A stretch of 64,000 bases of DNA from an uncultured delta proteobacterium (GTDB lineage Bacteria; Myxococcota_A; Polyangia; Fen-1088): contig CAWGPW010000043.1 in the NCBI GenBank assembly GCA_963824555.1, positions 68,763-132,762 on the forward strand. Reading direction: 5' to 3'. Every line of letters starts with the position of its first letter. The first letter of the stretch is position 1. A program made the translations under genes and the position numbers. The notes beneath the pieces are model-generated. The model saw nothing but the letters and a program-made list of their open reading frames with translations, made no database searches and was not told the origin of the DNA. Below, piece after piece: positions 14,357-40,267 of this stretch.

Positions 14357-14830
14357 CTATGTTCCCTTGCCAAGTGCAAAGGCCTGCAGATTGGCTGCGT
14401 GAAGCTTGTCGGGAAGCGCGGCCACGATGGCCGCGTGCCACAGATTGTCGGCAAGATCGAGGTGGCGCGCAAGGGCTCCGAGCAGGGCCACGTTCAGGCT
14501 CTTCTTGTTGGCCAGGCGTGCCTCGTCGATCATGCCAGGCTCGATGAGCACGCCTCCCGATTTCAGCACGGGGCGTGCGACCTCCACCTGGCTTTGCGAC
14601 AGCACCACCAGACAGTCGGCCGCGCCCGGTGGCACCATGGGCGAGAAGACCTTCTTGCCGAAGCGCACATCGCTCGACACCGAGCCGCCGCGTTGGCTCA
14701 TGCCGTGGATTTCGCTCTTCTTCACGTCGAAGCCGGCGCGAAACACGGCGCCAGCCAGGATGTCGGAGGCCTTGAGCACGCCCTGGCCGCCAAGGCCCGC
14801 GATGACGATGTTGGTGATGAGGCTGCTCAT
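14357..14830 (-). CDS. iorB: Indolepyruvate:ferredoxin oxidoreductase subunit beta (IorB)
   Basis: NIVIAGLGGQGVLKASDILA... matches the IorB N-terminus. Start MSSLITN taken 1 nt after the iorA stop. Alternative Met at 14845. Confidence 0.75.
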   Translation of the reverse strand: MSSLITNIVIAGLGGQGVLKASDILAGAVFRAGFDVKKSEIHGMSQRGGSVSSDVRFGKKVFSPMVPPGAADCLVVLSQSQVEVARPVLKSGGVLIEPGMIDEARLANKKSLNVALLGALARHLDLADNLWHAAIVAALPDKLHAANLQAFALGKGT

Positions 14831-14831
14831 G

Positions 14832-16448
14832 TCACTTGGGGGCATGGGTCTGCTTCTCTCTTACCTTGATGGCACCGGCGGCGAGCAGGCACGGGCGGCG
14901 GGCAATGATGAGGGTGAGCTCGGTCTTGCCCAGGGCCACGCGTAGCACGCGCGCGATGCCTGCGGAGTCGAGGATGGGATCCACGACCTGCACGTTCTTG
15001 ATGCCGAGGGCGCGGGCCAGGTCCTCGAAGATCACCTTGCTCGTCGCCTCGTGGTTGAGTCGTGCGGCCCGTGCCGGGGTGCTCTTGCAGGCCGGTCATG
15101 GCCGTGGTGCCGTTGTCGAGAATGATGAGCACGTGGCCGGTGGGCGGCGGGTTGTAGATCATCTCGACGAGACCGGTGAGGCCGCTGTGGACGAAGGTGC
15201 AGTCGCCGATCACGCTGACCACGCGCCGAGCCTGCTCGGGCGGCAGGACGTGGCGCAGGCCCAGGCCCACGCCGATGGAGGCGCCCATGCATACCAGCGT
15301 GTCCATGGCGGCAGAACGGCGGCAGGACGCCGAGCGAGTAGCAGCCGATGTCGCCTGAAACGATGCAGTCGAGGTCGTGCAAGACCTCGAAGACATTGCG
15401 GTGCGGGCAGCCCGGACAAAGCTCGGGCGGTTTGCCGGGCGCAGCCGCAGCCTCGGGCGAGGTGTCGCCCGCGACGATGCGACGCACGCGCGCGACGTTC
15501 AGCTCGCCGAAGCGGTACATCTCCGGCTTGTTTTCGACGGCGATGCCCGCGATGCGCGCGGCCTCGTAGAGGTAAGGATCGCCTTCTTCGACGACCAGGC
15601 AGCGCTCGACGCTGGCGGCGAAGCGTGCGCATGGTCTCGATCGGCAGCGGGTAGGTGAGGCCGAGTCTTGAGCACATGCGCCTCGGGCGCGGCCTCGCGC
15701 ACGTGCTGGAAGGAGATGCCGGAGGTGATGATGCCCAAGGTGCTCCGGCCCTCGACGATCTGGCTTCGGTCCCTCGCTGTCGTTCCAGGCTGCAATCTCC
15801 GCCAGCTTTCCGCGCAGCCGCCGGTGCGCGGGCCGCGCGTAGGCGGGAATCATCACGCGGCCGGGAATGTCGCGCACGAAATCGGCCGGTTTGGCCGGCG
15901 GTACGGGATAGCCGGCGCTGCACCACCGTGGCTTCGAGTGGCACACCCGCGTGGTCATGCGCAGCAGGACCGGCACGTGCCAGCGCTCGGAAAGCTCGAA
16001 GGCGCGTAGCGTGAAATCGTAGGCTTCCTGCGAATCGGACGGCTCCAGCATCGGCACGCCCGCGGCGACGGCATAGCGGCGGTTGTCCTGCTCGTTCTGG
16101 CTCGAGGCCATGCCCGGATCGTCGGCCGAACACGATCACGAGGCCACCCGCCACGCCCGTGTAGGCCACCGTGAAGAGCGGATCCGCCGCCACGTTGAGG
16201 CCCACGTGTTTCATGGTGACGAGCGCCCGGGCACCGGCGAAGGCCGCGCCGATGCCCACCTCCAACGCCACCTTCTCGTTGGGCGCCCATTGGGCCTGGC
16301 CGCCCAGGCCGTCGAAGAGCTCCAGAATCTCCGTCGATGGCGTGCCCGGATAACCGGTGCCGAGCTTGATCCCGGCGTGAAAAGCCGCCCGGGCGACGGC
16401 CTCGTTACCGCTCGCCAAGCGACGGTCTACTGCGTGTTGCTGTGGCAT
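14832..16448 (-). pseudogene. iorA: iorA (indolepyruvate:ferredoxin oxidoreductase alpha subunit) disrupted by at least six frame changes
   Basis: Recognisable IorA segments are spread over ORFs in three frames (15210..16448 N-term, 15032..16111, 15499..15795, 14827..15396, 14832..15035 C-term). These include the PFOR N-terminal domain, CPGCPH, and the TPP-domain block GDCTFVHSGLTGL. One junction was resolved to a single extra nt near 16127. Confidence 0.7.
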
Positions 16449-26075: not shown

Positions 26076-26404
26076 AGTCGCATTGGACCCGCGATCGGGC
26101 CCAATCGCAATGGTTTGATGACAGACAGCTTGAGCAAGCCGGCCGCTTGCTAGTGTGCGACGGTAGCCTCGCCCACGGGGGCACCGGGCGGATCTGACTG
26201 GTGGGAAACGGAACGACAAGGACGTCTCCGAAGCGGTAGGGCATGGTGCCGACCTTCAGACGTCGTTGTAAACGCCGTCCTCGGGATTGTCCCAGACCTT
26301 GGCGAAGGCAGGCGAGATTCGCAATCACGCACGAGGGCGAGAACCCGGCCACGGACGTCCCCAAGGGATCGCGGCAACAAAATAGGCTTGACACCCGAAG
26401 ATTC

Positions 26405-26420
26405 TGTGAATATATTCACA
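26405..26420. promoter_or_regulatory. Rex operator (perfect palindrome TGTGAATATATTCACA) overlapping the rex start region
   Basis: Matches Rex consensus TTGTGAA-N4-TTCACAA. 16-bp perfect inverted repeat located 6 nt upstream of the rex GTG. Confidence 0.7.
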
Positions 26421-26425
26421 ACATC

Positions 26426-27109
26426 GTGAGCGAACCGGCCGTAACTCCAGAAGCCATCCCCCAGGCTGGGGAAGCAAGCAGGAAAACCGAGCGCCATGTC
26501 TCGGTTTCCACGGTGGAGCGGCTGTCCGTCTACCGCAAGCTCCTGGAAGAGCTGCACTACGACGGCGTAGAATACGTCTACTCGCAGCAATTGGCCGAAA
26601 TGGTCGGGGTGACGCCGGCTCAGCTGCGTCGCGACCTGGCCAGCTTCGGCTCGTTCGGCAACATCAGCCGCGGCTACAACGTCTACCAGCTCACCCGCAC
26701 CATCAGCCACATCTTGGGCACCGATTCGCCCCAAACCGTGGCTTTGTTCGGGGCCGGCGATTTGGGCCGTTCGCTGCTCGCCTACCGCGGCTTCGAGGAG
26801 CGTGGTTTCCACATCGGCCTGATCTTCGATCTGGACGCCGAGAAGGCGGGCAAGGTCTTCGCCGGCCGTCGCTGCTACGCCGTCGAGGACATGGAGAAGG
26901 TCCTGCCCGAGCTCGACGTCCGCATCGCGGTCCTGGCTTGTCGGCCCCCCGGTCTGCAGCAGCTCGTGGACCGGCTGGCCAAGCTTGGAATCTTGTCCAT
27001 TCTCAACTTCGTTCCAAAGCGCGTCACCCCCGCACCAGGAGGCTACGTCGAGAGCATCGACATCGCTGCCAAGCTCGAAAAGCTCTCGTTCCTTAGCCAG
27101 AAGAAGTAG
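26426..27109 (+). CDS. rex: Redox-sensing transcriptional repressor Rex (GTG start inferred)
   Basis: N-terminal winged helix (ERLSVYRKLLEEL, QQLAEMVGVTPAQLRRDL) and Rossmann NAD(H) site (VALFGAGDLGRSLL). Confidence 0.85.
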   Translation: MSEPAVTPEAIPQAGEASRKTERHVSVSTVERLSVYRKLLEELHYDGVEYVYSQQLAEMVGVTPAQLRRDLASFGSFGNISRGYNVYQLTRTISHILGTDSPQTVALFGAGDLGRSLLAYRGFEERGFHIGLIFDLDAEKAGKVFAGRRCYAVEDMEKVLPELDVRIAVLACRPPGLQQLVDRLAKLGILSILNFVPKRVTPAPGGYVESIDIAAKLEKLSFLSQKK

Positions 27110-27159: not shown

Positions 27160-27181
27160 CTGTGAAACATTTCACTGTGAA
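27160..27181. promoter_or_regulatory. Rex-like operator(s) upstream of the hydrogenase/regulator operon
   Basis: CTGTGAAACATTTCACTGTGAAC: half-sites TGTGAA-N4-TTCACt plus an overlapping TTCAC-TG-TGAA, about 65 nt upstream of the receiver gene. Confidence 0.55.
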
Positions 27182-27244: not shown

Positions 27245-27664
27245 ATGAAGAAGCGCGTTTTGCTCGTCGACGATGACAAAGATCTCGTGGGGTCGCTCAA
27301 GGTCGTTCTCGAAGCCAACGGCTTCGAGGTCGCGACCGCCCACAACGGAAGCGACGGGCTGGCGCAGGTGGCCGCGCAGCGTCCCGACGCCATCGTTCTC
27401 GATGTCATGATGGACACCGACACCGAGGGGTTTGGCGTGGCTTACAAGCTGGAAGGCGATCCCGCCACGCGCCGCATTCCCATCGTGCTTCTGACGGGCT
27501 TCATGGACCACATGAAGGAAAAGCGCGAGTCCTTCGACTTCATCACCGGGCGCGATTGGCCGGCGGCGAAGTTGATGAAGAAGCCCGTCGTCGCCGCCGA
27601 GCTCGTGGCCGCCCTTCGCCAGCTTCTTGCCGAGGCGGAAGCCGTCGCCAGCGCGGTTGCCTAG
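27245..27664 (+). CDS. Stand-alone response-regulator receiver (CheY-like) protein
   Basis: 139 aa REC only (LLVDDD...AIVLDVMMD...KKP). No output domain. Confidence 0.8.
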   Translation: MKKRVLLVDDDKDLVGSLKVVLEANGFEVATAHNGSDGLAQVAAQRPDAIVLDVMMDTDTEGFGVAYKLEGDPATRRIPIVLLTGFMDHMKEKRESFDFITGRDWPAAKLMKKPVVAAELVAALRQLLAEAEAVASAVA

Positions 27665-27719: not shown

Positions 27720-28202
27720 ATGTGTCAGGTCGATCAGATCATCGCGGGCCATGAGGAGCTTGGCAAAGAGCACCTCATCCCGCTTCTGCAGGAGATTCAG
27801 GCCAAGGAAGGCTACCTATCCCAGGCCGCCATGAACAAGGTGGCGGACGCCACTGGCGTTCCGCAGAGCCGTGTGTTCGGCGTTGCGACCTTCTACAACC
27901 AGTTCCGCTTTGCCCCCAAAGGCGCGCACGTCATCGAGGTGTGCCGGGGCACGGCCTGCCACGTGAAGCAGAGCTTGAAGCTGGCCCAGCACCTGACACG
28001 CAAGCTGAATCTCAAGCCGAACGGCAACTCGCCGGACGACAAGTTCACCGTCATCACGGTGGCTTGCCTCGGGGCGTGCTCCATCGCGCCGGTCATCAAG
28101 CTGGATGGCGAGTTCTACGGCCATCTCGACGTGGAAAAACTCGACCACCTGCTCGACGAGGCCGCGCAAGAGTGCAAAGGGGACAGCCATGCGGTCAAGT
28201 AA
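27720..28202 (+). CDS. NuoE-like [2Fe-2S] thioredoxin-fold subunit of NADH-dependent [FeFe]-hydrogenase (HydC/HndA-like)
   Basis: CRGTACHVKQ...VACLGACSIAPV [2Fe-2S] Cys pattern of the NuoE/HoxE family. Confidence 0.8.
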   Translation: MCQVDQIIAGHEELGKEHLIPLLQEIQAKEGYLSQAAMNKVADATGVPQSRVFGVATFYNQFRFAPKGAHVIEVCRGTACHVKQSLKLAQHLTRKLNLKPNGNSPDDKFTVITVACLGACSIAPVIKLDGEFYGHLDVEKLDHLLDEAAQECKGDSHAVK

Positions 28203-30201
28203 TCTGATTGCGGCGTGCTGCGAGCGCTGCACCCACCGGCCGGGCAACCCGTGTCGCGATTTGATCCGCTGCTTGGCCGAGGGGCCGATCTGTCACAGCG
28301 ACGATGCCTGCGCGAAGATGCGGCAAGAGCGCCTGGCGAATGCTCGGCGAGGCGGGCAGGGGACGCTCATCTTCGTCGGCGCCGGTACCTGCGGACGCGC
28401 CAACGGATCCACCAAGGTCATCGCCAGGATCGGTGCGTTCTTGGAAGAGCACAAGATCGCGGCGGAGCTCGTCGAGGTCGGATGCGTCGGCTACTGCCAG
28501 CGCGAGCTCTTCGTCGACATTCAGAAGCCAGGCGAGCCCAGGCTGGCCTACGCGGACATCAATCTGGGCAACGTCGATCAGTTGCTCGAAGCCGTGCTCC
28601 TGCGCCATGAAATGCGCAACGGCTTCCTCTACGGCCGGCATGGCGATGGCGGTCCGGCCTGGGCCGACGTTCCGGAAATCAACACCACTGATTTCTTCAA
28701 GAAGCAGGTGAAGGTGGTGCTGCGCAACTCGGGCATCATCGACCCGAGCACTCTCGATGCGGCGCTGGCGGCTGGAGCCTTCAAAGCCGCAGCCAAGGCG
28801 GTTTGCACCATGACGCCGGAGGAAGTCTGCAACGAAGTGTTGGCCGCCGGCCTGCGCGGACGCGGCGGTGCGGGTTTCCCGACCGGGCAAAAATGGAACA
28901 TCGCCCGCCAGACCCCGCGCGCGCAGAAGTACCTCATCTGCAACGCGGACGAGGGCGATCCCGGCGCCTTCATGGATCGCGCCGTGCTCGAAAGCGATCC
29001 CTTCTTCGTCATCGAGGGCATGCTCATCGCCGCCTACGCCATCGGCGCCAGCAAGGGCTACATCTACTGCCGGGCCGAGTACCCCTTGGCCGTCGAGCGT
29101 TTGACATCTGCCATCGCCCAATGCCGGCGCGTGGGCCTGCTCGGCAACAATATCCTCGGCAGCCTGTTTTCGTTCGACATCACCATCAAGCAGGGCGCCG
29201 GCGCCTTCGTGTGCGGCGAAGAAACCGCCATCCTGGCCAGCATCGAAGGTGGGCGCGGCATGCCCAGGCCGAGGCCGCCGTATCCCGCCGTCAGCGGCCT
29301 TTTCTGTAAGCCCACGGTGCTCAACAACGTCGAAACCCTGGCCAATGTGCCGGTCATCATCAATCGCGGCGCCGAGTACTTTCAGAATCTCGGGTTGGGC
29401 AAGGCGGCGGGCACCAAGGTGTTCGCGCTCTCCGGCGCCATCCGCAACACTGGCCTCGTGGAGGTTCCCGTCGGCATCAAGCTGCGTACCATCATCGAAG
29501 AGATCGGCGGCGGCGCGCTGCCGGGCCACAGGTTCAAGGCGGTGCAAATCGGCGGTCCGTCGGGCGGCTGCATTCCGGAGCAGCACCTCGACACGGTGAC
29601 CGACTACGCGGCCCTCATCGAGCTCGGCGCCATGATGGGGTCGGGCGGCATGGTGGTGATGGACGAACGCACCTGCATGGTCGACGTCGCTCGCTACTTC
29701 ATGGAGTTCATCCGCAACGAATCCTGCGGCAAGTGCACCCCGTGCCGCGAAGGCACCACGCGCATGCTGGAGATTCTGACCTCCATCACCGAGCGTCCGG
29801 TGGGCGACGAGGAACGGCGCCTGGAGCGTTTCCGCGGCGTGCTTCACCTGCAAGAGCTCGCCAGCACGGTCAAGGAAGCCTCGCTGTGCGGGCTCGGTCA
29901 ATCGGCGGGCAACCCGGTGCTGTCCACGCTGCGCTTCTTCCGTGACGAATACGAACGTCACGTCATCGACCAGCGCTGCCCCTCGGGCGAGTGCCAGGGG
30001 CTGGCCGTGTACGAGGTCGACAATGCCACCTGCATCGGGTGCCTTCTGTGCAAGAAGGCTTGCCCAAGCAACGCCATCGTCGGCGAACGCAAGCAGGCCC
30101 ACTACATCCTGGTCGACAAGTGCGTCGGCTGCGGCACCTGCGTCACCGCGTGTCCCAAGCATTCCATTCACCTTGTTAGCGAAGAGAGGGCCTGCGTATG
30201 A
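28189..30201 (+). CDS. NuoF-like NADH-binding FMN/FeS subunit (HydB/HndC-like) with N-terminal 2Fe-2S domain and C-terminal 2x[4Fe-4S]
   Basis: GLRGRGGAGFPTGQKW (FMN/NADH site). SCGKCTPCREG. C-terminal CIGCLLCKKACP...CVGCGTCVTACP. Overlaps neighbours (ATGA at both ends). Confidence 0.85.
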   Translation: MRSSNLIAACCERCTHRPGNPCRDLIRCLAEGPICHSDDACAKMRQERLANARRGGQGTLIFVGAGTCGRANGSTKVIARIGAFLEEHKIAAELVEVGCVGYCQRELFVDIQKPGEPRLAYADINLGNVDQLLEAVLLRHEMRNGFLYGRHGDGGPAWADVPEINTTDFFKKQVKVVLRNSGIIDPSTLDAALAAGAFKAAAKAVCTMTPEEVCNEVLAAGLRGRGGAGFPTGQKWNIARQTPRAQKYLICNADEGDPGAFMDRAVLESDPFFVIEGMLIAAYAIGASKGYIYCRAEYPLAVERLTSAIAQCRRVGLLGNNILGSLFSFDITIKQGAGAFVCGEETAILASIEGGRGMPRPRPPYPAVSGLFCKPTVLNNVETLANVPVIINRGAEYFQNLGLGKAAGTKVFALSGAIRNTGLVEVPVGIKLRTIIEEIGGGALPGHRFKAVQIGGPSGGCIPEQHLDTVTDYAALIELGAMMGSGGMVVMDERTCMVDVARYFMEFIRNESCGKCTPCREGTTRMLEILTSITERPVGDEERRLERFRGVLHLQELASTVKEASLCGLGQSAGNPVLSTLRFFRDEYERHVIDQRCPSGECQGLAVYEVDNATCIGCLLCKKACPSNAIVGERKQAHYILVDKCVGCGTCVTACPKHSIHLVSEERACV

Positions 30202-31919
30202 GCCTCGTCAACTCACTGTCCATAGACGGAAGAGAAGTTCAATTCACCTCCGGCGAGACGGTGCTCTCGGCGGCCTTGCGCGCGGGGATCGAGATCCCGC
30301 ACCTGTGCTCGATGGATTGGGCCTGCAAGCCCGAGGCGGCCTGTCGCGTCTGTTTGGTCGAGCTCGAAGGCGTGCCGCGCCTGCAGACGAGCTGCACCCT
30401 CGAGGCCAAAGACGGCCAGAAGGTGCGCACCCGCTCGCCGCGCGTGCAGGCCGTGCGCCGCAACATCGTCGAGCTACTCATCGCCAACCACCCGGGCGAC
30501 TGCCTGACGTGCGCGCGCAACCAGAACTGCGAGCTGGCCCAGGTAGCCAGCGAGCTCGGCGTGCGCGAGCGACGCTACCGCGGTCTCAAGAAGAACCACC
30601 CCCTCGATCTGTCCTCGCCGGCTCTCGTGCGCGATCCCAACAAGTGCATCCTGTGCGGACGTTGCGTGGCCGTGTGCCACCAGGTGCAGGGCGTGGGCGC
30701 CATCGACTTCATCGACCGCGGCTTCAAGACGCGCGTCGGGCCTGGCTTCCACGACGGCATCAACGTGTCGAATTGCATCTTCTGCGGTCAGTGCACGCGG
30801 GTGTGCCCGACTGCGGCCCTGATGGAGAAGAGCCAAGTCGACGCCGTGGTGGCGGCGCTGGCGGACCCCAACGCTATCGTCGTCGCGCAGGTCGCCCCGG
30901 CGGTCCCGGCCACGCTGATGGAGAATGCGCAGTCGAGCTCGGTGCGCACCATGCTGCTGCGACTGGCGGCGGCGCTCAAGCGCGTCGGCTTCGACGCCGT
31001 GTTCGACACCGGCTTCGCCGCCGACCTGACCATCATGGAGGAGGTCTCCGAGCTGATTCGGCGGGTGCAGACGGGCGGTCCCCTGCCTATGTTCACCAGC
31101 TGCTCGCCTGGCTGGATCCAATACGTCGAGAAGTACCGGCCCGACCTCATTCCGCACCTGTCCACCTGCAAGTCGCCGCAGCAGATGGCGGGAGCGCTGA
31201 TCAAGGACGTGTACCCCAAGCACCGCGATCTGGGTGGCAAGCGACTGGTGTGCGTGTCGCTCATGCCGTGCACGGCGAAGAAGGTCGAAGCCAGCGAGCT
31301 TGGCGACGTCGACTTCGTCCTGACCACGCGCGAGATCGATGAGCTACTGGTCCGCTTCGGCATCGATCTCGACAAGGTCACCGAGCTTGGCTCCCTCGAT
31401 GCGCCCTTCTCCTCGGCCAGCGGCGCGGGACGACTCTTCGGCGGCACGGGTGGTGTCATGGAGGCGGCCATTCGCACCGCGCACAAGATGCTTACGGGCA
31501 GCGAGCTCAAGGGCGGCTTCAAGGTCGAGGAGGCGCGTGGGCTCGAAGGCATCAAGTGCTTCTCGCTCGACGTGGGCGGGACCACGCTCAACTTCGGCAT
31601 CGTCAACGGCCTCGGGCGTCTCAAGCCCATTCTCGATCCGCTCGCCAAAGGCGTGTCCAATCTGCACTTCATCGAGGTCATGACCTGCCCCGGCGGTTGC
31701 ATCGGCGGCGGTGGCCAGCCCTACGACTCGGATCCCGAAGTCATTCGCGTCCGGCTCGAACGCCTCTACGACGCTGACCGGCGCTCGACCCTCAAGACCT
31801 CGCACGACAATGACGAGGTTCAAGAGCTCTACGCCGAGATGCTTGGAAAACCCTTGGGCGAGCTGAGCCACCACCTGCTTCATCGCAGCTACATCGATCG
31901 GCGAGCAGAGGAGAGATAG
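30198..31919 (+). CDS. hydA: [FeFe]-hydrogenase catalytic subunit (HydA/HndD-like) with variant L1 motif TSCSPGW
   Basis: N-terminal 2Fe-2S + 4Fe-4S domains. H-cluster motifs L1 FTSCSPGW, L2 MPCTAKKVE, L3 EVMTCPGGCIGGGGQP. Confidence 0.85.
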   Translation: MSLVNSLSIDGREVQFTSGETVLSAALRAGIEIPHLCSMDWACKPEAACRVCLVELEGVPRLQTSCTLEAKDGQKVRTRSPRVQAVRRNIVELLIANHPGDCLTCARNQNCELAQVASELGVRERRYRGLKKNHPLDLSSPALVRDPNKCILCGRCVAVCHQVQGVGAIDFIDRGFKTRVGPGFHDGINVSNCIFCGQCTRVCPTAALMEKSQVDAVVAALADPNAIVVAQVAPAVPATLMENAQSSSVRTMLLRLAAALKRVGFDAVFDTGFAADLTIMEEVSELIRRVQTGGPLPMFTSCSPGWIQYVEKYRPDLIPHLSTCKSPQQMAGALIKDVYPKHRDLGGKRLVCVSLMPCTAKKVEASELGDVDFVLTTREIDELLVRFGIDLDKVTELGSLDAPFSSASGAGRLFGGTGGVMEAAIRTAHKMLTGSELKGGFKVEEARGLEGIKCFSLDVGGTTLNFGIVNGLGRLKPILDPLAKGVSNLHFIEVMTCPGGCIGGGGQPYDSDPEVIRVRLERLYDADRRSTLKTSHDNDEVQELYAEMLGKPLGELSHHLLHRSYIDRRAEER

Positions 31920-31930
31920 AGTATTCAGCC

Positions 31931-33956
31931 ATGGGCGTGATTCAGACCATCCTGCAGAATTGCCGCCGCTGCTACTCGTGCGTGCGCGAGTGCCCGGCCA
32001 AGGCGATCAAGATCGTCGACGGCCAGGCGTCGGTGGTCAAAGAGCGCTGCATCGCCTGCGGCAACTGCACGGTGGTCTGTTCGCAAAACGCCAAGGCCTA
32101 TGCCAGCGGCATCGAGCGGGTTTGCCAGCTTCTGGCTGGCGGCGGTCCGGTGGTGGCCATGGTGGCGCCGTCCTTTCCCGCGGATGACTGCGGCCAGGAT
32201 CCGGGGCGTCTCGTCGGGGCGTTGCGCGCACTCGGCTTTTCCCACGTGGTCGAGGTCGCCTACGGGGCGGATCTCACCAACAAGGCCTACCGCGCGTACA
32301 TCAAGGAGCACCCCACGGGCACGCGCCTGGCCACGGCGTGCCCGGCGCTGGTCGAGTACGTGCGCAAATACGCGCCCCATCTGGTGGACTGCCTGATTCC
32401 CATCGTGTCGCCCATGATCGCGACGGCGATGGCGGTCAAGGCGCTCTATGACCAGTCGCACGCCTGCGTCTTCATCGGGCCGTGTGTCGCCAAGAAGCTG
32501 GAGATGCAAGATCCCAACGTGCCGGCCGTCGTCGATGGCGTGCTGACCTTCGACGAGCTGAGGCGACTCTTCGCCGAGCGCGGGGTGCAGGTCGGCGACG
32601 CCACATCGGGCGAGTTCGATCCGCCGCATGCCGGTTCCGGGCGGCTCTATCCCCTGGTTGGTGGTTTGCTCAAGGGTGCCGGTCTCGAGCGCAGCTCGCT
32701 CAACGCCGAGGTCATGGTGCTATCGGGCGCGCCCGAGATTCTCGATGTCCTGGCCGACCTGCGCCCAGACGACCCGCAGCCGCTCTTCATCGAACCGCTC
32801 ATGTGCCGTGGTTGTTACAGCGGTCCCGCCACGCACGGGGACAAGCGGCGCCCGCAGCGTAAGCGGCGCGTGGCCGACTACGTGAAGTCGCGCATGGACG
32901 AGACTGCCGAGGCGTCGATGGAATTGCCTGCGCTCGATCTCGGACGCACCTTTACGGTCGACGATCAACGCCTGAAAGAGCCGAGCGAGCAGGAAATCAG
33001 GGTCATTCTCGCTCGCACCAACAAGTTCGCCACCGAGGACGAGCTCAACTGTGGGGCGTGCGGCTACGAATCCTGCCGTGCCAAGGCCGTGGCCGTGTAC
33101 CGCGGGCTGGCCGAAGAGGCCATGTGCCTACCCTTCATGATCGAGCAGGCCGAGCGCGTGTGTCACGAGCTGAACGTCCCCTGGCCCAACCTCAAGGACA
33201 TCCACCGCCACCTCATCAACACCGAGAAGCTGGCCTCCATGGGGCAGATGGCGGCCGGTGTGGCGCACGAGCTGAACAACCCCCTCGGCACCATCCTGCT
33301 CTATACCAACCTGCTTGCGCGCAAGCTCAAGGACCGGCCCGAGCTCGATCATGATTTGAAACTGCTCGTCGACGAGTCCAACCGCTGCAAGAAAATCATC
33401 GGCAACCTGCTCGACTTCGCCCGGCAGAACCGGGTGCAACTGGAACGCACGAATGTGGCCGAGCTTTTTCAGCGCGTGGTCGAGGATTCGCTCTTCACCT
33501 TGCGCGACACGGGATCCGCCTTGCGCATCACCTGCGAAGCACCGCCCGATCTGCACGTCGATCTCGACAAAGATCAGATCGGCCAGGTGCTCATCAACCT
33601 GGTCAAGAACGGCATCGAGGCCATGGAAGGCAAAGAGGGCACGGTGCGCCTGGTGGCCGTCGACGAGCCGGCGACCGGACGCGTGCGCATGGCGGTCAGC
33701 GACGAGGGCCGGGGCATCGCGCCGGAGGCCCGCGACAAGGTCTTCCAACCGTTCTTCACCACCAAGAGCCTCGGTCGAGGCACCGGGCTCGGCCTGCCCA
33801 TCGCCTACGGCATCGTCAAGATGCACGGCGGACGGATTCTGGTTCGATTCGGATCCCGTGTGCGGAACCACGTTCACCCTGGAATTGCCCAAAACCCAGT
33901 CGCTGCGAAGGAGTCACCTGTATGGCGAAGAGCCCCAAGATTCTGTTTGTCGATGA
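31931..33956 (+). CDS. Sensory [FeFe]-hydrogenase-like (HydS-type H-cluster domain) fused to histidine kinase. Contains a +1 frameshift at ~33836-33840.
   Basis: 2x[4Fe-4S] ferredoxin N-term. H-cluster-like motifs ATACPALV / IGPCVAKKLE / EPLMCRGCYSGP. Cx2Cx4Cx16C motif (CGACGYESC...16...C). HisKA H-box GVAHELNNPLGTI. HATPase (GRGTGLGLPIAYGIVKMHGG), then the frame changes. The downstream frame gives WFDSDPVCGTTFTLELP. Confidence 0.7.
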
Positions 33957-34344
33957 CGACCGAGATTTTCTTGCCGCGCAGACCGCTTTTTTCGGTGGGC
34001 GTGGCTACGAGGTCGTCACCCTCGACCGCGTGGAAGGCGCCCTGGAACGCATCAGTCAGGAGCGGCCCGATGTCATCGTGCTCGACCTCATGATGGAGCA
34101 CTACGATTCGGGCTTCATGCTCGGGCGGCGCATCCGGCAAGACCCGGCCATGCTCGAGGTTCCCATCCTCATGCTGTCGGGCGTGGCGGCGGCGACGGGA
34201 CACAAGTTCGCCGCCGAGGCCGCGGCGCTCAAGGATTGGATCAAGCTCGACGCCTTTCTGGACAAGCCGGTGACCGGCCGCCAGCTGCTCAAGGTCGTCG
34301 AGGAAAAGCTCGGGGCACGAGGCGCGGCTACGGCCACGGGATAA
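33922..34344 (+). CDS. Stand-alone response-regulator receiver protein (paralog of 27245..27664)
   Basis: 141 aa REC only (ILFVDDD...VIVLDLMMEH...DKP). Confidence 0.8.
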   Translation: MAKSPKILFVDDDRDFLAAQTAFFGGRGYEVVTLDRVEGALERISQERPDVIVLDLMMEHYDSGFMLGRRIRQDPAMLEVPILMLSGVAAATGHKFAAEAAALKDWIKLDAFLDKPVTGRQLLKVVEEKLGARGAATATG

Positions 34345-34346
34345 CC

Positions 34347-35805
34347 GTGCCCAGCATCCTGGTCATCGACGACGAATACGGCGTTCGCTCGGGGATTCGC
34401 CAGATCCTCGAGCTGGAAGGCTACGCCGTGGAGGTCGCAGCGACCGGGCGCGAGGCCCTGGAGCTTCTCGACCAGCGACCGTTCGACATCGCGCTCATCG
34501 ACTACCAACTGCCCGATCTCGATGGGCTGACCCTGCTGGCATCCATGCGCAGCCGCAAGCTCGCCACCATGACCTGCATGATCACGGCCTACGCCAACAT
34601 CGATACCGCCATCGCCGCCACCCGGCAGGGTATCGATTTCTTCCTGCCCAAGCCGTTCTCGCCCGACGATCTTCTCGGCGTCATCGAGACGTTGTCGCGC
34701 CATAAGCAGCTCAAAGAGGAAGCGGAGAAGCTGCGCAAGGAGAACGAGGCCAACCTGCTTGCCCTGGCCACCGAGAAAAGCCAAACCAGCTCGCTGGTGG
34801 CGTCCCTGCGCGACGCCGTCCTGGTCATCAATCGCGAGCGCGAGGTGGTGCTGGTCAACCACGCCATGTCCGCCTTGCTCGGCCGCGCGCCCAACAATTT
34901 GGTGCGCGCGCCTGTCGACGAGGTGCTCGGGGCTGCGCCCTTGTCCGGGCTGGCCGACTTGCTTTCCGCCCAGGGCGATGAGGAACGCAAGCTCGCCGAG
35001 CTCACCATCGGCGACCGCATCTTCTTCGCCAGCGTGGTCGCCTTTCATGGCGAGCAAGGGGAAGCTCTCGGTCGCATCCTGACCCTGGCCGACGTGACCG
35101 ACGTGCGCCGCATGGCCATGGAAAAGCCGCGTTTCATTCGCACCATGGTGCATGAATTCCGCTCTCCCCTCGGCGCCATCCGCAGTCTCATCGAGGTGGC
35201 CACCGAAAAGAGCCTGGGCGCCGACCTTGCGCCGTACTTGCCCTTTCTCGAACGTGCGGACAAGCGCATCGACAAGATGGTCGAGCTGATCGGCGAGCTG
35301 CTCTCGCTCTCGCGCATCGATCTGGAGCGGACCACAAATGTCGCGGAGCCCCCAGCGGACGTCTCGGTGGCTGTGGCCGCGACCCTGGATCTGTACCGGG
35401 AAAAACTCGTCGAGCGCAGGATCACTGCCAGCGTGGATGCCGCTCCCGACCTGCCGCGCGCGCGCATCGGCGACGAGGATTCTGAGGACCATCCTTTCCA
35501 ACCTGGTGGGCAATGCCATCAAATACGGTCGGGACGATGGTTCTTTGCGCCTGCGCGTGGTCCAGCACGAAGGCAAGCTCCACATCGAGGTCGCGGATTC
35601 AGGGATCGGCATCCGTGCCGAGAATCTGCCCCAAGTGTTCCAGGAGTTCTTTCGCGAGAAGCGCTCCGAGACGCGTGACATCGACGGCAACGGACTTGGG
35701 CTGGCCATCGTCAAGCGTCTGGTCGAGCGGGTGGGAGGCCAGATCGAGGTCGAAAGCACCCTCGGCGTGGGCTCGCTCTTTCGCGTGATTCTTTGCCCCG
35801 CCTAA
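34347..35805 (+). CDS. Hybrid receiver-PAS-histidine kinase. GTG start. Contains a +1 frameshift at ~35478-35484.
   Basis: N-terminal REC (ILVIDDE...IALIDYQLPDLDG). PAS-like middle. H-box MVHEFRSPLGAIRS. The HATPase block (ILSNLVGNAIKYG...GNGLGLAIVKRLVE) lies in the +1 frame (ORF 35338..35805). Confidence 0.7.
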
Positions 35806-35905: not shown

Positions 35906-38377
35906 ATGACTCAAACGACTCCCGAGACCTCTGGCCCCGATCTGGCCGCGCTGCGCGACTTGCTGGCGAGCTGGCCGGATCTCAAGCCGCGCAACCTGAT
36001 CGCCGTCTTGCAACGCACGCAGGAAGCCTACGGCTACCTGCCCATGGAGGCGCTGGACGCCATCGCCGACAGCATGCACATCGCCGAGGCGCGGGTGTAC
36101 GGCGTGGCCACCTTCTACTCGCAGTTTCGCCTGAAACCGCAGGGCGAGCACGTCATCCAGGTGTGCAACGGCACCGCCTGCAACGTGAAGGGATCGGAAG
36201 ATCTGCTGGGCGAGCTGGTGGCGGTGCTGGGCATCCACCCCGGCGACACCACCCCCGACGGCAAGGTGACGCTTGAAAAGGTGAATTGCGTGGGCGCCTG
36301 CGGCGTGGCGCCGGCCATCGTCGTCGACGGCGAGGTGCACGGCCGTGTGACCCCCAAGTTGGTCGGGCGATTGGCGCGCAAGCTCCTCACCGCGCCGAAG
36401 CCAGTGGTCCTCTCGCGCAAATCCGCGGCCGAGAAGGTCCGCGGGCGCACCTTTCTCGAGCGCTGCTGCGACAAGTGCCAGAACCGTCCCGGCACGCCGT
36501 GCCCGAACTTTCTGCTTTGTCGCATGGAAGGCGTTTCCTGCCACGACGACGAACAGTGCGGGAAGTTCCGTGAGGAATTGCGCCAACTGGCCGAGCACAA
36601 CGCGCCCCAGTACGCGGCCACGGCCTTTCTGTGCAAGGGCCTGACCTGCGACGCCAGCGACGAGCCGGGGGTGTACAAGACCTTCCTTTCAGAACTGAAG
36701 AAACGCGGACTGACGGGCAAGGTCAATTTCATCGAGACCGGCTGCCAGGGACTGTGCGAGGTGGGCCCAATCGTGCAGCTCAAGCCTCTCGAAGCCTTCT
36801 ACTGCCGCGTGAAGGCCGCCGATGTGGCCGAGATCGTCGAGAAACACATCCTCGGCGGTCAGATCGTCGAGCGCCTGCTCTACGCCCCCGGCCACGTGAC
36901 GGAAGCCTCGATTCCGTTCTACAGCAAGCAAGTCCGCCGCGTGCTTTCCAACACCGGTAAGATCGATCCCGAGAACATCGACGAATACATCGCCCGCGAG
37001 GGGTACAAGGCGCTCTACAAAGCGCTCAAGGAAATGACGCCCGAGCAGGTCATCGCCGACGTGACTGCGGCGGGCTTGCGTGGCCGTGGCGGCGGTGGGT
37101 TCCCCACGGGCAAGAAATGGGAGATTGCGCGAGCCCAGGCCGACAGCACCCGCTACATCGTGTGCAACGCCGACGAGGGCGACCCGGGCGCGTTCATGGA
37201 TCGCAGCCTTCTCGAAGGCGATCCGCACCGCGTGCTCGAAGGCATCCTCATCGCGGCCTACGCCATCGGTGCCGAGCAAGCCTTCATCTACTGCCGGGCC
37301 GAGTATCCGCTGGCTATCCGCCGCCTGGAAATCGCCATGGCCCAGGCGCGGCTGTACGGATTGATCGGTCCCAATATTCTTGGGACCGGCAAGAGCCTGC
37401 ACGTGGAGATCGTGCAAGGCGCGGGCGCCTTCGTGTGCGGCGAGGAGACCGCCATGCTCTCCAGCATCGAGGGCAAGCGCGGCATGGCCCGCAACAAGCC
37501 GCCCTATCCGGCCCAGCACGGTTTCGCCGGACATCCGACCTGCGTGAACAACGTGGAAACCTTCGCCAATGTGCCGCTGATTCTGGCCAAGGGCGTGGCG
37601 TGGTTTCGCAGCGTGGGGACGGAGAAGAACGCCGGTACCAAGATTTTCTCGCTGTCGGGCAAGATCAAGAACACCGGTCTCGTCGAGGTGCCCATGGGCA
37701 TCACCCTGCGCGAGCTGCTGCACGACATCGGCGGCGGCGCGCCCGAGGGTTCGACCATCAAGGGCGCGCAGACCGGCGGTCCGTCGGGCGGGTGCATCCC
37801 GGCCGATCGCATGGATGTCACCGTCGACTACGAAAGCCTGAGGCGGCTGGGCGGGATGATGGGCTCGGGCGGCTTGGTGGTCACCGATTCGGGCACCTGC
37901 ATGGTGAGCTTCGCCAAGTTCTTCCTGGGGTTCACCCAGCACGAATCGTGCGGCAAGTGCATCCCGTGCCGCGAAGGCACCAAGCGCATGCTCGAGATCC
38001 TGGAACGGATCACGGATGGCAAGGGCAAGATGGAGGACATCACCGAGCTGCGCCACCTGGCGCTCGTCATCTCGCGTACCTCGGCCTGCGGACTCGGGGC
38101 CTCGGCGCCGAGCCCCGTGGTGTCGACCCTGCGCTACTTCGAGCACGAGTACGTGTCGCACATCAAGGACACGCGCTGCCTGGCCGGCGTGTGCCGCTCG
38201 CTGCTCACCTACCACATCCTGGCCAACTGCCGCGGTTGCGGCCTGTGCGCGCGCGGCTGTCCCGTCCAGTGCATCAGCGGCGACAAGGGCGAGATGTACG
38301 TCATCGACAACGCCCGCTGTATCAAGTGCGGCGAGTGCAACCGGGTATGTCCCTTCGGCGCCGTGGCGCGCACCTAG
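35906..38377 (+). CDS. NuoE-NuoF fusion subunit of a second NADH-dependent/bifurcating-type [FeFe]-hydrogenase
   Basis: 823 aa. N-terminal NuoE-like 2Fe-2S (CNGTACNVKG...VGACGVAPA). Extra Cys-rich linker. NuoF core (GLRGRGGGGFPTGKKW, SCGKCIPCREG). C-terminal 2x[4Fe-4S]. Confidence 0.85.
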   Translation: MTQTTPETSGPDLAALRDLLASWPDLKPRNLIAVLQRTQEAYGYLPMEALDAIADSMHIAEARVYGVATFYSQFRLKPQGEHVIQVCNGTACNVKGSEDLLGELVAVLGIHPGDTTPDGKVTLEKVNCVGACGVAPAIVVDGEVHGRVTPKLVGRLARKLLTAPKPVVLSRKSAAEKVRGRTFLERCCDKCQNRPGTPCPNFLLCRMEGVSCHDDEQCGKFREELRQLAEHNAPQYAATAFLCKGLTCDASDEPGVYKTFLSELKKRGLTGKVNFIETGCQGLCEVGPIVQLKPLEAFYCRVKAADVAEIVEKHILGGQIVERLLYAPGHVTEASIPFYSKQVRRVLSNTGKIDPENIDEYIAREGYKALYKALKEMTPEQVIADVTAAGLRGRGGGGFPTGKKWEIARAQADSTRYIVCNADEGDPGAFMDRSLLEGDPHRVLEGILIAAYAIGAEQAFIYCRAEYPLAIRRLEIAMAQARLYGLIGPNILGTGKSLHVEIVQGAGAFVCGEETAMLSSIEGKRGMARNKPPYPAQHGFAGHPTCVNNVETFANVPLILAKGVAWFRSVGTEKNAGTKIFSLSGKIKNTGLVEVPMGITLRELLHDIGGGAPEGSTIKGAQTGGPSGGCIPADRMDVTVDYESLRRLGGMMGSGGLVVTDSGTCMVSFAKFFLGFTQHESCGKCIPCREGTKRMLEILERITDGKGKMEDITELRHLALVISRTSACGLGASAPSPVVSTLRYFEHEYVSHIKDTRCLAGVCRSLLTYHILANCRGCGLCARGCPVQCISGDKGEMYVIDNARCIKCGECNRVCPFGAVART

Positions 38378-38394
38378 AGGAACGGAGACTTGCC

Positions 38395-40137
38395 ATGAGC
38401 GACGTCAATCTGATCATCAACGACCTGCCGGTGAGCGTTCCCGCCGGCTCGACGATTCTCGAAGCCGCGCAGGCGCTGAGCATCCGCATTCCTACCCTGT
38501 GCTACGACAAGCAGCTCACGGTGTCGGGCGCCTGCCGCCTGTGCGTGGTAGAGGTGGCCAATCCCACGGGCTCCACGCGGCTCGAGCCGTCATGCTCGTT
38601 TCCAGTGCAAGAAGGTATGCGGGTGCGGACCAACACGCGCGAGCTGCGCGATGCCCGCCGCACCATCATCGAGCTGATCCTGGCCAACCATCCGCGCGCT
38701 TGCCAGACCTGCATTCGCAACCAGCGCTGCAGTCTGCAGGATGCCTGTCGTGAATACGGCATCGACAAGATCCGCTACGAGGGCGAAAAGCGGCATCACG
38801 CCGTCGATGCTTCGTCGGTGGCCATCACGCGCCACCCGGACTACTGCATCCTGTGCGGTAAGTGCGTGAAAGTCTGCAAGGAAGTGCAGGGCGTGTACGC
38901 ACTGGATTTCGTCAACCGCGGCTTTTCGACCACGGTGCTGCCGCCCTTCGATCGCGACCTCGCCGACACGGTCTGCGTGTTGTGTGGGCAGTGCTTGCTC
39001 AAGTGTCCGGTCGCAGCCATCCGCGACAAGAGCTACATCAAGACGGTTGCCGATGCGCTGGAAGATCCGGACAAGATCGTCACCGTTCAAATCGCACCCT
39101 CGGTGCGGGCCACCGTTGGCGAGCTCTTCGGCCTTCCCCCGGGCGTGTCGTTGACCCGCAAACTGCCGACCGCGCTTCGCCGCGTCGGTTTCAAGTACAT
39201 CTTCGATACCGATTTCGGCGCCGACATGGCGGTCATGGAGGAAGGCCACGAGCTCGTGGCGCGCTTGCAGAAAGGCGGGCCGTATCCGCTCATCACCAGT
39301 TGCTCCCCGGGCTGGGTGAAGTTCATGGAGCACTTCTTCCCCGAGCTCATTCCGAACACGTCTTCGGTCAAGTCGCCGCAGCAGATTCTCGGCGTGCTGA
39401 CCAAGACGTTCTTCGCCGAGCGCAATGGCATTGACCGCAAGAAGCTCTTCAACGTCTCGATCATGCCGTGCTCGGCCAAGAAGTTCGAGATCCAGCGCCC
39501 CGAACACCGTCTGGACGACGGCACCCCCGAGGTGGACGCCGTCCTGACCACGCGCGAGCTCGGCGACTTGCTCAAGATGCACGACATCGACCTCCCGTCG
39601 CTGCCCGAGTCGGCCTTCGACCCCATCCTGGGCGAAACCACGGGCGCCGGTCTGATCTTCGGCGTGACCGGCGGTATGATGGAGGCCGCGCTGCGCACGG
39701 TGGCCGCGGTGATGGACCCCCATACCGAGCCGCGCATGGAGTACTCGGTCTTGCGCGGAACCGGGGGCATCAAGCGCGGCTCGGTGCTGATCGGCGAGCG
39801 CGAGATTAGGCTTTGCGCCGTGCACGGGCTGGCCAACGCGCGCAAAATCCTCGATGACCTTCGTGCGGGCCGCGAGGAAATCCACTTCCTGGAAGTCATG
39901 GCCTGTCCCGGCGGCTGCATCGGCGGCGGTGGTCAGCCCTTGCCCACCGACGAGGAAACCCGCCGCAGGCGCATCGAGGCCATGTACGCCGAGGATCGCG
40001 GCATGCCCATTCGGCAATCGCACAAGAACCCGGCCGTTCGCACGGTGTACGACGAGTTCCTGGGCGAGCCCTGCGGCGAGAAGGCGCACCACCTTCTGCA
40101 CACGCACTACGCCGCCCGCTCGCCACGCGGGTTCTAA
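38395..40137 (+). CDS. hydA: [FeFe]-hydrogenase catalytic subunit, second copy, also with L1 = TSCSPGW
   Basis: Good RBS (AGGAACGGAGAC). Motifs ITSCSPGW, IMPCSAKKFE, EVMACPGGCIGGGGQP. The last 257 bp are duplicated at 42173..42429. Confidence 0.85.
   Translation: MSDVNLIINDLPVSVPAGSTILEAAQALSIRIPTLCYDKQLTVSGACRLCVVEVANPTGSTRLEPSCSFPVQEGMRVRTNTRELRDARRTIIELILANHPRACQTCIRNQRCSLQDACREYGIDKIRYEGEKRHHAVDASSVAITRHPDYCILCGKCVKVCKEVQGVYALDFVNRGFSTTVLPPFDRDLADTVCVLCGQCLLKCPVAAIRDKSYIKTVADALEDPDKIVTVQIAPSVRATVGELFGLPPGVSLTRKLPTALRRVGFKYIFDTDFGADMAVMEEGHELVARLQKGGPYPLITSCSPGWVKFMEHFFPELIPNTSSVKSPQQILGVLTKTFFAERNGIDRKKLFNVSIMPCSAKKFEIQRPEHRLDDGTPEVDAVLTTRELGDLLKMHDIDLPSLPESAFDPILGETTGAGLIFGVTGGMMEAALRTVAAVMDPHTEPRMEYSVLRGTGGIKRGSVLIGEREIRLCAVHGLANARKILDDLRAGREEIHFLEVMACPGGCIGGGGQPLPTDEETRRRRIEAMYAEDRGMPIRQSHKNPAVRTVYDEFLGEPCGEKAHHLLHTHYAARSPRGF
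39881..40137 (+). repeat. Direct repeat copy 1 (native 3' end of hydA2, 257 bp)
   Basis: About 99% identical to 42173..42429. Differences: CAGCCC vs CAGCTC, stop TAA vs TAG. Confidence 0.8.
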
Positions 40138-40157: not shown

Positions 40158-40267
40158 TGCAGGCATTCTTCTCGGCGCGCTCGCCGGCGGTTTTGCTGCG
40201 GCGATAATCGATGACTCCCTCCTGGCACTCGAGCCCATCCGCAAGGAGCCGTTCGTCAGTGTCGTCT

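Follow-up and report, generated by a model that had tools for sequence, protein, structure and literature searches.

A PAS-less histidine kinase with a HydS-type [FeFe]-hydrogenase module as putative H2 input, encoded between two hydrogenase gene sets of an uncultured deltaproteobacterium

Introduction

How might a histidine kinase come to report on H2? The question is raised by a gene at positions 31931-33956 of the window, as we call the whole stretch of 64,000 nucleotides analysed here (contig CAWGPW010000043.1, positions 68,763 to 132,762, from an uncultured delta proteobacterium of the GTDB lineage Myxococcota_A; Polyangia). Its product is probably, though by no means certainly, a cytoplasmic, soluble histidine kinase that carries a HydS-type [FeFe]-hydrogenase module as its putative H2 input. 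Its domain architecture, the conservation of its residues, its fold, its synteny and the size of its family are shown below; the reading as an H2-responsive kinase is plausible on grounds of homology only.

The wider question is that of signal transfer by putative sensory [FeFe] hydrogenases. The only characterised ones are TmHydS and TamHydS (PMC8163306, PMC10055695, PMC13104023), of which the first has a PAS output with no known partner and the second has no output domain. A HydS fused to a kinase comes with a built-in output that can be assayed, as autophosphorylation and as transfer to the adjacent receiver (REC) protein, and the kinase-fused family is the most direct route to testing whether and how H2 is sensed. 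The window gene offers nothing here beyond its hundreds of relatives, some of them from cultured bacteria such as Caldithrix abyssi and Tenuifilum thalassicum (PMC11406978), and the architecture itself is not new, having been noted earlier in genome surveys. Peculiar to the clade are a contracted P3 loop and a putative phosphorelay without a DNA-binding regulator.

Domain architecture of the sensor-kinase

The gene and the parts of its product are the following (positions of the window):

31931..33956, plus strand: HydS-type sensor module fused to a histidine kinase; ATG start, 674 residues after removal of one T
31952..32092, plus strand: N-terminal ferredoxin-like domain; two four-Cys motifs, C11/14/17/21 and C40/43/46/50, the Cys invariant in the family
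32150..32827, plus strand: H-domain, residues 74-299; ligands C137, C185, C292, C295; second sphere A136, G183, Y240, L290
33044..33133, plus strand: PF04060 FeS domain, C374-x2-C377-x4-C382-x16-C399, from Pfam, motif and conservation
33134..33238, plus strand: 35-residue helical linker, residues 402-436, containing VPWP, from the AlphaFold model
33239..33427, plus strand: HisKA (dimerisation and histidine phosphotransfer, DHp) domain with phospho-acceptor H446, from Pfam, motif and conservation
33566..33896, plus strand: HATPase_c catalytic domain with N, G1, F and G2 boxes, split by a one-nucleotide insertion at about 33837-33839

A first-pass annotation, made from the letters alone, had proposed a HydS-type module joined to a kinase with no PAS domain between them. 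Sequence and homology support this, and the domain search that it had suggested as a check detects the hydrogenase domain as well as both kinase domains. Pfam places Fe_hyd_lg_C at residues 74-299 (E 1.9e-42, with 146 bits where the cut-off is 22), preceded by Fer4_10 (residues 8-50, E 1.7e-6) and followed by FeS PF04060 (residues 372-401, E 1.7e-8), HisKA (residues 437-499, E 2.5e-15) and HATPase_c (residues 546-655, E 1.3e-26). No PAS family of Pfam matches the protein at E ≤ 0.01, and since the FeS domain and HisKA are spaced by 35 residues there is no room for one. Several papers define group C by a PAS domain fused after the C-terminal cluster (e.g. PMC11216029), a domain that the window protein lacks. 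Neither was a convincing transmembrane segment found in it.

Both ferredoxin-type motifs had been described as CxxCxxCxxxCP. This holds for the first (CRRCYSCVRECP, residues 11-22); the second (CIACGNCTVVCS, residues 40-51) is CxxCxxCxxxC followed by S, and thus ends in CS and not in CP. The H-cluster motifs ATACPALV (residues 134-141), IGPCVAKKLE (residues 182-191) and EPLMCRGCYSGP (residues 288-299) come next. In the C-terminal FeS domain the spacing of C374, C377, C382 and C399 is exactly the Cx2Cx4Cx16C that had been claimed, in agreement with the motif described for HydS proteins (PMC8163306); in the PDB these residues find, in addition, RnfB with its N-terminal cluster domain (8AHX chain B, E 3.7e-6). 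As expected of a HydS-type protein, it is encoded together with a group A hydrogenase and regulatory genes.

Structural modelling agrees with this assignment. In an AlphaFold2 model built with 91 homologues the pLDDT score (predicted local distance difference test) stays above 90 through the H-domain, and a Foldseek search of the model against the PDB returns [FeFe] hydrogenases as top matches (E 2e-17, about 390 aligned columns). The linker at residues 402-436 is predicted, with low confidence (pLDDT <50), as helix-break-helix in this monomer model (helices 399-413, 418-429 and 434-465), and its sequence is kept only within the kinase-fused group. A linker cysteine, C411 (33161-33163, in ERVCHEL), never varies in homologues of 58-97% identity. 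In wider kinase-fused relatives, however, its place is taken by Y, L or V, and we rejected it both as a redox cysteine and as a fifth ligand of the cluster.

The kinase half follows directly, with the H-box GVAHELNNPLGTI at residues 443-455 (phospho-acceptor H446, in HELNNP) and the further boxes NLVKNG (556-561), DEGRG (591-595), FQPF (605-608) and GRGTGL (615-620). No variation is seen in the H, N, G1, F and G2 boxes of 91 homologues, and with these catalytic boxes and a receiver gene alongside, the protein has what a HisKA-class kinase should have. Among NCBIfam profiles, run on a homologue that is 97% identical (P0001), the kinase domain is nearest to the AtoS/ZraS type, yet far under the cut-offs (AtoS 178 bits against 646); the hydrogenase profiles also stay under theirs (FeFe_hydrog_B1 175 against 450 and FeFe_hydrog_A 89 against 406). 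No curated NCBIfam family was found that spans the hydrogenase-kinase fusion.

Reading frame of the two kinase genes

The coordinates 31931-33956 came from the first-pass annotation, and their start is sound; the end at 33956 holds only if one T is taken out, which had been assumed silently. Read literally, the open reading frame (ORF) is 31931-34093 and gives 720 residues that end in the wrong frame. By comparison with a relative that is 92% identical (L001), there is one extra T at about 33837-33839 (GGATCTGG in L001, GGATTCTGG here), shifting the frame inside HATPase_c, and the true C-terminus of that domain (WFDSDPVCGTTFTLELP...) lies in the next frame, with its stop at 33956. Joining 31931-33838 to 33840-33956 yields 674 residues, the length of nearly all close homologues, and ends just as P0001 does; without this one-nucleotide correction the last 38 residues are out of frame.

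The second kinase of the locus (HK2, 34347..35805) also carries an extra T, at 35480, and in the same GGAT[T]CTG context. At both places (33834-33841 and 35477-35484) GGATCTG in L001 becomes GGATTCTG here, and the shifts fall within or just before HATPase_c. The window has three GGATTCTG sites, of which the third, at 2189, is inside an intact ORF.

If the insertion of the T were real, the gene would be a pseudogene, with the last 38 residues of the ATP-binding domain garbled and the kinase inactive, and HK2 likewise. The frameshift does stand in the deposited sequence, the literal 720-residue product is found in public protein collections, and both kinases of one module are hit in an identical context. 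We nevertheless regard this as very unlikely: an unrelated IorA-like gene (14827-16448) is also split over at least three frames, L001 and another relative (L084) carry different HK2 frameshifts, and past the shift the correct frame is perfectly conserved with P0001, a pattern typical of assembly consensus errors. On these grounds the frameshifts of the sensor-kinase and HK2 are probably assembly errors. Programmed frameshifting or targeted pseudogenisation of both kinases was rejected as the leading view, in light of the split IorA-like gene, the differing shifts in relatives and the GGATTCTG in an intact ORF. A GATC-linked systematic error is unproven, as 379 GATC sites are intact.

The IorA-like gene (indolepyruvate/2-oxoacid:ferredoxin oxidoreductase alpha-like, minus strand) has its pieces in separate ORFs, which match POR_N positions 2-97, POR_N positions 106-161 and TPP_enzyme_C; this speaks for indel errors throughout the assembly. 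As for HK2 in the relatives, that of L001 has its own frameshift at about 12537, with the start of the REC domain lost, and that of L084 (12462-14065) is called as ORFs of 342 and 181 residues.

Active-site residues and the contracted P3 loop

Residues were mapped by alignment to solved hydrogenases and by aligning, with MAFFT, 132 sequences that represent 50% clusters and the two catalytic hydrogenase subunits of the window, HydA1 and HydA2. The proton-transfer cysteine had been described as lost and the metal-ligand cysteines as kept, and the map confirms both. CpI C300, C355, C499 and C503 correspond to C137, C185, C292 and C295, which hardly vary, if at all, in any output class of the 132 representatives. 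Contacts of the [2Fe] site are conserved as well, with these counterparts in the window protein:

K358 and E361 of CpI: K188 and E191
A230-P231-S232 of CpI: A79-P80-S81
S323-P324 of CpI: S160-P161
G421-G422 of CpI: G244-G245

The proton-transfer residues, on the other hand, are replaced (C299 by A136, E279 and E282 by Y, R286 by H, S319 by I156), and residue 136 is A, P, T or S across the kinase-fused group; loss of C299 and other pathway residues is a mark by which sensory enzymes are recognised (PMC8163306). At the position of M353, which sensory enzymes swap for a small residue, Gly in about 51% (PMC10055695), the window has G183; the residue is Gly in all 68 PAS-type representatives and in all but one of the 32 that are directly fused. 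F417 corresponds to Y240 and M497 to L290, the latter position not being conserved among sensory enzymes (PMC10055695).

One feature departs from the canonical hydrogenase. The P3 loop reads C292-R-G-C295, one residue short of the C-x-x-G-C of group A enzymes, HydA1 and HydA2 among them, which 63 of the 68 PAS-only representatives also have. C-x-G-C occurs in 33/33 directly kinase-fused sequences (the window protein and 32 cluster representatives). Two residues likewise separate the cysteines in every one of the 91 close homologues, in 10 of the 11 kinase fusions that have a domain inserted and in 17 of the 21 sequences whose output is of another kind. With the loop one residue shorter in the kinase-fused clade, extrapolation from TmHydS is not automatic; we consider the putative H-cluster binding in this clade a reasonable extrapolation.

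The shortened loop invites another reading, in which the H-domain holds no [2Fe] subcluster, as in Nar1/NARF-type proteins, and acts as an Fe-S scaffold, sensitive to O2 or redox state, for the kinase. Only the clade with kinase and sigma54 fusions has this loop, the K358 equivalent is a residue other than K in 7 of the 32 representatives with direct fusion, and in some kinase-bearing group C proteins the P1-P3 motifs are hardly recognisable (PMC11406978). In the close clade (91 sequences, 58-97% identity), however, K188, C137, C185, C292, C295, G294, G298 and P299 are all invariant, and the genes adjoin those of true hydrogenases, so that maturases must be in the cell. A [2Fe]-less scaffold thus seems most improbable to us.

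The kept residues also bear on the idea that the protein senses a redox pool: its ferredoxin-like clusters would equilibrate with a carrier such as ferredoxin and the kinase would report electron pressure, the H-cluster being a slow vent or a second input. The N-terminal 2x[4Fe-4S] domain is strictly conserved, and in TamHydS the N-terminal clusters are the main electron path and indispensable (PMC13104023). Rex, another redox sensor, accompanies the module in many loci, and the kinase domain is weakly like the redox-responsive ActS/PrrB/RegB (93 bits, under the cut-off). A plain ferredoxin-type sensor, though, would not need an H-domain of 230 residues, and the retention of K188, APS 79-81, SP 160-161 and the bridging C295 makes sense only for a [2Fe] subcluster. 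We therefore hold redox-pool sensing to be unlikely, and keep to H2 as the putative input.

A sensor module with many outputs

In a search of 5.8 billion proteins, all of the 120 matches listed share the core domains except one fragment of 588 residues, and nearly all of them have 667-700 residues and 58-97% identity. The best match to a species representative is from a metagenome-assembled genome (MAG) of Polyangiaceae (65% identity). Searched alone by filter-free HMMER, the sensor module returns 910 representatives of 50% clusters at E ≤ 1e-30. A kinase is present in about 45 of the best 150 of these 910, mostly fused directly; other outputs are PAS only (about 570 residues, the TmHydS type), PAS-kinase, PAS-kinase-REC-REC, GAF-GAF-kinase and sigma54 AAA+ with or without PAS. 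The sensor module (Fer4, H-domain, FeS) behaves as a portable input domain. Average-linkage clustering, which is rough, puts kinase- and sigma54-fused modules together and apart from most PAS-only ones, and suggests a single clade for the C-x-G-C loop and the kinase and sigma54 outputs.

Among the relatives, the module is joined, either straight away or via PAS, to sigma54 AAA+ activators with a helix-turn-helix (HTH) domain, to GAF-GAF-kinases and to two-REC hybrid kinases (P0157, P0164, P0172, P0194, P0177 and P0168).

Gene neighbourhood and its conservation

Around the sensor-kinase the gene order is rex, REC, hydC, hydB, hydA1, HydS-kinase, REC, HK2, a NuoE/F-like fusion and hydA2, with these signals and genes:

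26388..26421, plus strand: sigma-70-like promoter TTGACA-17-TATATT, 11/12, which overlaps a palindrome like the Rex operator
26404-26421, plus strand: Rex operator-like palindrome CTGTGAATATATTCACAA, 1 mismatch to TTGTGAANNNNTTCACAA
26427..27109, plus strand: rex, redox-sensing repressor; Pfam Put_DNA-bind_N and CoA_binding
27160..27177, plus strand: weaker Rex-box-like site CTGTGAAACATTTCACTG, 3 mismatches, between rex and REC, ahead of REC-hydCBA
27245..27664, plus strand: stand-alone REC, 139 residues; Pfam Response_reg E 1.9e-15
27720..28202, plus strand: hydC, NuoE-like [2Fe-2S] subunit; Pfam 2Fe-2S_thioredx E 9.5e-46; start from the length of the L001 homologue
28189..30201, plus strand: hydB, NuoF-like subunit for flavin mononucleotide and NADH, 670 residues, the length of the L001 homologue; Pfam Complex1_51K, NADH_4Fe-4S, Fer4
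30198..31919, plus strand: hydA1, group A [FeFe] hydrogenase catalytic subunit, P1 motif TSCSPGW; Pfam Fe_hyd_lg_C E 6.5e-78 and Fe_hyd_SSU; PDB 8A6T chain A E 1.3e-166
33922..34344, plus strand: stand-alone REC, 140 residues; AGGAG ribosome-binding site; Pfam
34347..35805, plus strand: HK2, REC-PAS-HisKA-HATPase_c kinase, 485 residues after removal of the T
35906..38377, plus strand: second hydrogenase set, fused NuoE-NuoF-like subunit, 823 residues; Pfam
38404..40137, plus strand: hydA2, group A [FeFe] hydrogenase; with 791 bits above the cut-off (765) of NCBIfam NF040763 'NADH-dependent [FeFe] hydrogenase, group A6'
40172..40187, plus strand: terminator-like hairpin after hydA2, the sole non-coding one following the gene series on this strand

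The series from rex to hydA2 is apparently one transcription unit. Between hydA1 and the HydS-kinase there are 11 nucleotides, the next REC overlaps the corrected stop of the kinase by 35 nucleotides, and from the REC stop codon to the HK2 start codon there are 2. Just upstream of rex the -10 element of the promoter is inside the near-perfect Rex box; the likely start of rex is the GTG at 26427, as against the mechanical ORF start at 26243, judging from the promoter position and from homologues of 216-233 residues. The count of Rex boxes by itself is not significant, at least two sites being found in 17 of 100 shuffles. The candidate boxes suggest NADH/NAD+ control of the whole unit.

The second hydrogenase set (35906-40137) stands where L001 has GH8 and sigma-70 genes. 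HydA1 and HydA2 both have TSCSPGW in place of TSCCPxW, and the Ser aligns with CpI C300; we rejected this motif as an anomaly, as it is the same in the solved HydA1 of A. woodii (7Q4V) and Ser is common in group A3 (PMC11406978).

Conservation of the arrangement was assessed in 19 full-length loci, 18 from a genome scan plus L001; 60 of the 80 scan loci are unrelated kinases, brought in by seed peptides from the kinase domain. The 19 come from MAGs of Polyangiaceae, Actinomycetes, Hydrogenedentales, Bacteroidota, Melioribacteraceae and Elusimicrobiota. HydC/HydB/HydA homologues are immediately upstream of the HydS-kinase in 17 of them, a REC gene is immediately downstream in 18 and a second kinase downstream in all 19, while Rex is found on either side in many loci and not in all. 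Two further loci, taken with their precomputed annotation, have the same module. In sum, six phyla or more have an eight-gene module in common (Rex, REC, HydC, HydB, HydA, HydS-kinase, REC, REC-PAS-kinase).

Four loci from Bacteroidales and Porphyromonadaceae have a second, HydS-like sensor gene upstream of hydC and divergent from it (L009 3978-5222, L014 4131-5393, L017 4359-5570 and L021 4213-5406, minus strand), besides the kinase-fused gene that they carry downstream of hydA. A second bfuT upstream has likewise been described in some cultured Bacteroidota (PMC11406978).

Such a module can also be read in terms of a fourth regulatory subunit of HydABC, 'BfuT', acting post-translationally on the enzyme, or on Rex via the REC proteins. 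In favour of it, bfuT has been treated as a subunit gene of its cluster (PMC11406978), and the module, for all its two kinases and three REC domains, has no DNA-binding response regulator. Physical association with HydABC would, however, be conjecture, and the kinase domain is most like the AtoS/ZraS type, whose partners are sigma54 activators; the regulator count, moreover, covers the module, and orphan response regulators may be encoded elsewhere in the genome. We consider a BfuT subunit role quite unlikely, and return to the kinase with a putative H2 input.

Proposed signal path

Several points weigh against an H2-responsive kinase. The deposited sequence gives the 720-residue product in the wrong frame at its end; the C-x-G-C loop, universal among the directly kinase-fused sequences, makes normal H-cluster geometry in this clade questionable; HydE, HydF and HydG were not found within the window; none of the 19 loci, nor the two annotated ones, has a DNA-binding response regulator in the conserved module; and no biochemistry of a kinase-fused member was found in the literature. 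H2 binding, low turnover and H2-dependent autophosphorylation are, for the window protein, extrapolated from the PAS-type TmHydS.

With these points in mind, the following path may be proposed. H2 would react slowly at an H-cluster without a proton relay, and the changed state of the H-cluster or of the accessory clusters could alter the conformation of the C-terminal FeS domain and of the helical linker. This change would pass to the DHp helices and alter autophosphorylation of H446. From there, judging by gene order, the phosphoryl group may move to the translationally coupled stand-alone REC and then into or through the REC-PAS-kinase. Since the C-terminal cluster of TamHydS stays oxidised under H2 (PMC13104023), the FeS domain may act structurally and not as a redox relay.

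The likely role of the circuit is feedback control of the expression or activity of a bifurcating or NADH-linked hydrogenase, integrating H2 (through the HydS-kinase) with NADH/NAD+ (through Rex). We may also speculate that the kinase- and sigma54-fused sensors are a lineage of their own, marked by C-x-G-C, and that the eight-gene module is a self-contained circuit whose phosphorelay ends on Rex or on the bifurcating hydrogenase, giving post-translational H2 feedback instead of transcriptional two-component control; this is a conjecture to which we give a low probability.

Comparison with known systems

Proteins of this kind have been listed under several names. HydDB has had an [FeFe] group C1, 'histidine kinase-linked (putative)', since 2016 (PMC5037454). 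In 2020 a PAS-less kinase fusion was noted in Elusimicrobia beside a trimeric group A hydrogenase and Rex, related to fusions of Ignavibacterium album and Caldithrix abyssi (bioRxiv 10.1101/765248). In 2024 'BfuT' was described in Hydrogenedentota and as shared with Caldithrix; it belongs to group C3, contains a histidine kinase domain and is encoded downstream of bfuA, kinase-domain proteins being placed under both C1 and C3 (PMC11406978).

These Elusimicrobia fusions and BfuT (of sub-type V clusters) are among the nearest known systems. They have the same PAS-less kinase/HATPase architecture as the window protein, and their genes, too, come straight after hydA of a trimeric group A3 enzyme and have Rex close by. 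The loci recovered here include some of Hydrogenedentales and Elusimicrobiota, which are 37-45% identical and keep this synteny. The window gene differs in belonging to another lineage and in the second hydrogenase set downstream.

TmHydS (Thermotoga maritima, group C, M2f) shares the order of 2x[4Fe-4S], H-domain and Cx2Cx4Cx16C with the window protein and is likewise encoded next to a group A hydrogenase. Its A131, G177 and Y223 are matched by A136, G183 and Y240 at the positions of C299, M353 and F417, whereas S267 and L290 differ at M497 (PMC10055695). TmHydS ends in PAS and has no kinase, while in the window protein HisKA-HATPase_c comes straight after the FeS domain. The P3 loop is C-x-G-C here against C-x-x-G-C in most PAS-type proteins, TmHydS itself not having been identified among the representatives. 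Over 420 residues, the sensor module of the window protein is 39% identical to a PAS-type representative (P0173, E 1e-89).

TamHydS (Thermoanaerobacter mathranii, group D, M2e) resembles the window protein in having no PAS, a C-terminal Cx2Cx4Cx16C and no C299. It is encoded near a bifurcating hydrogenase, but there the kinase-like ATPase is a separate gene (PMC8163306), whereas the window kinase is fused. Group D proteins have Ser or Thr at M353 (PMC8163306) where the window protein has G183, which does not fit that group.

The logic is also that of the HoxJ/HupT kinase and its [NiFe] regulatory hydrogenase ('histidine kinase-linked' group 2b of HydDB), in which a slow, sensor-grade hydrogenase controls a kinase and hence the hydrogenase genes. 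Metal site and fold are unrelated to those of the window protein, sensor and kinase are separate proteins joined via a PAS-like domain, and the output is known to be the response regulator HoxA/HupR.

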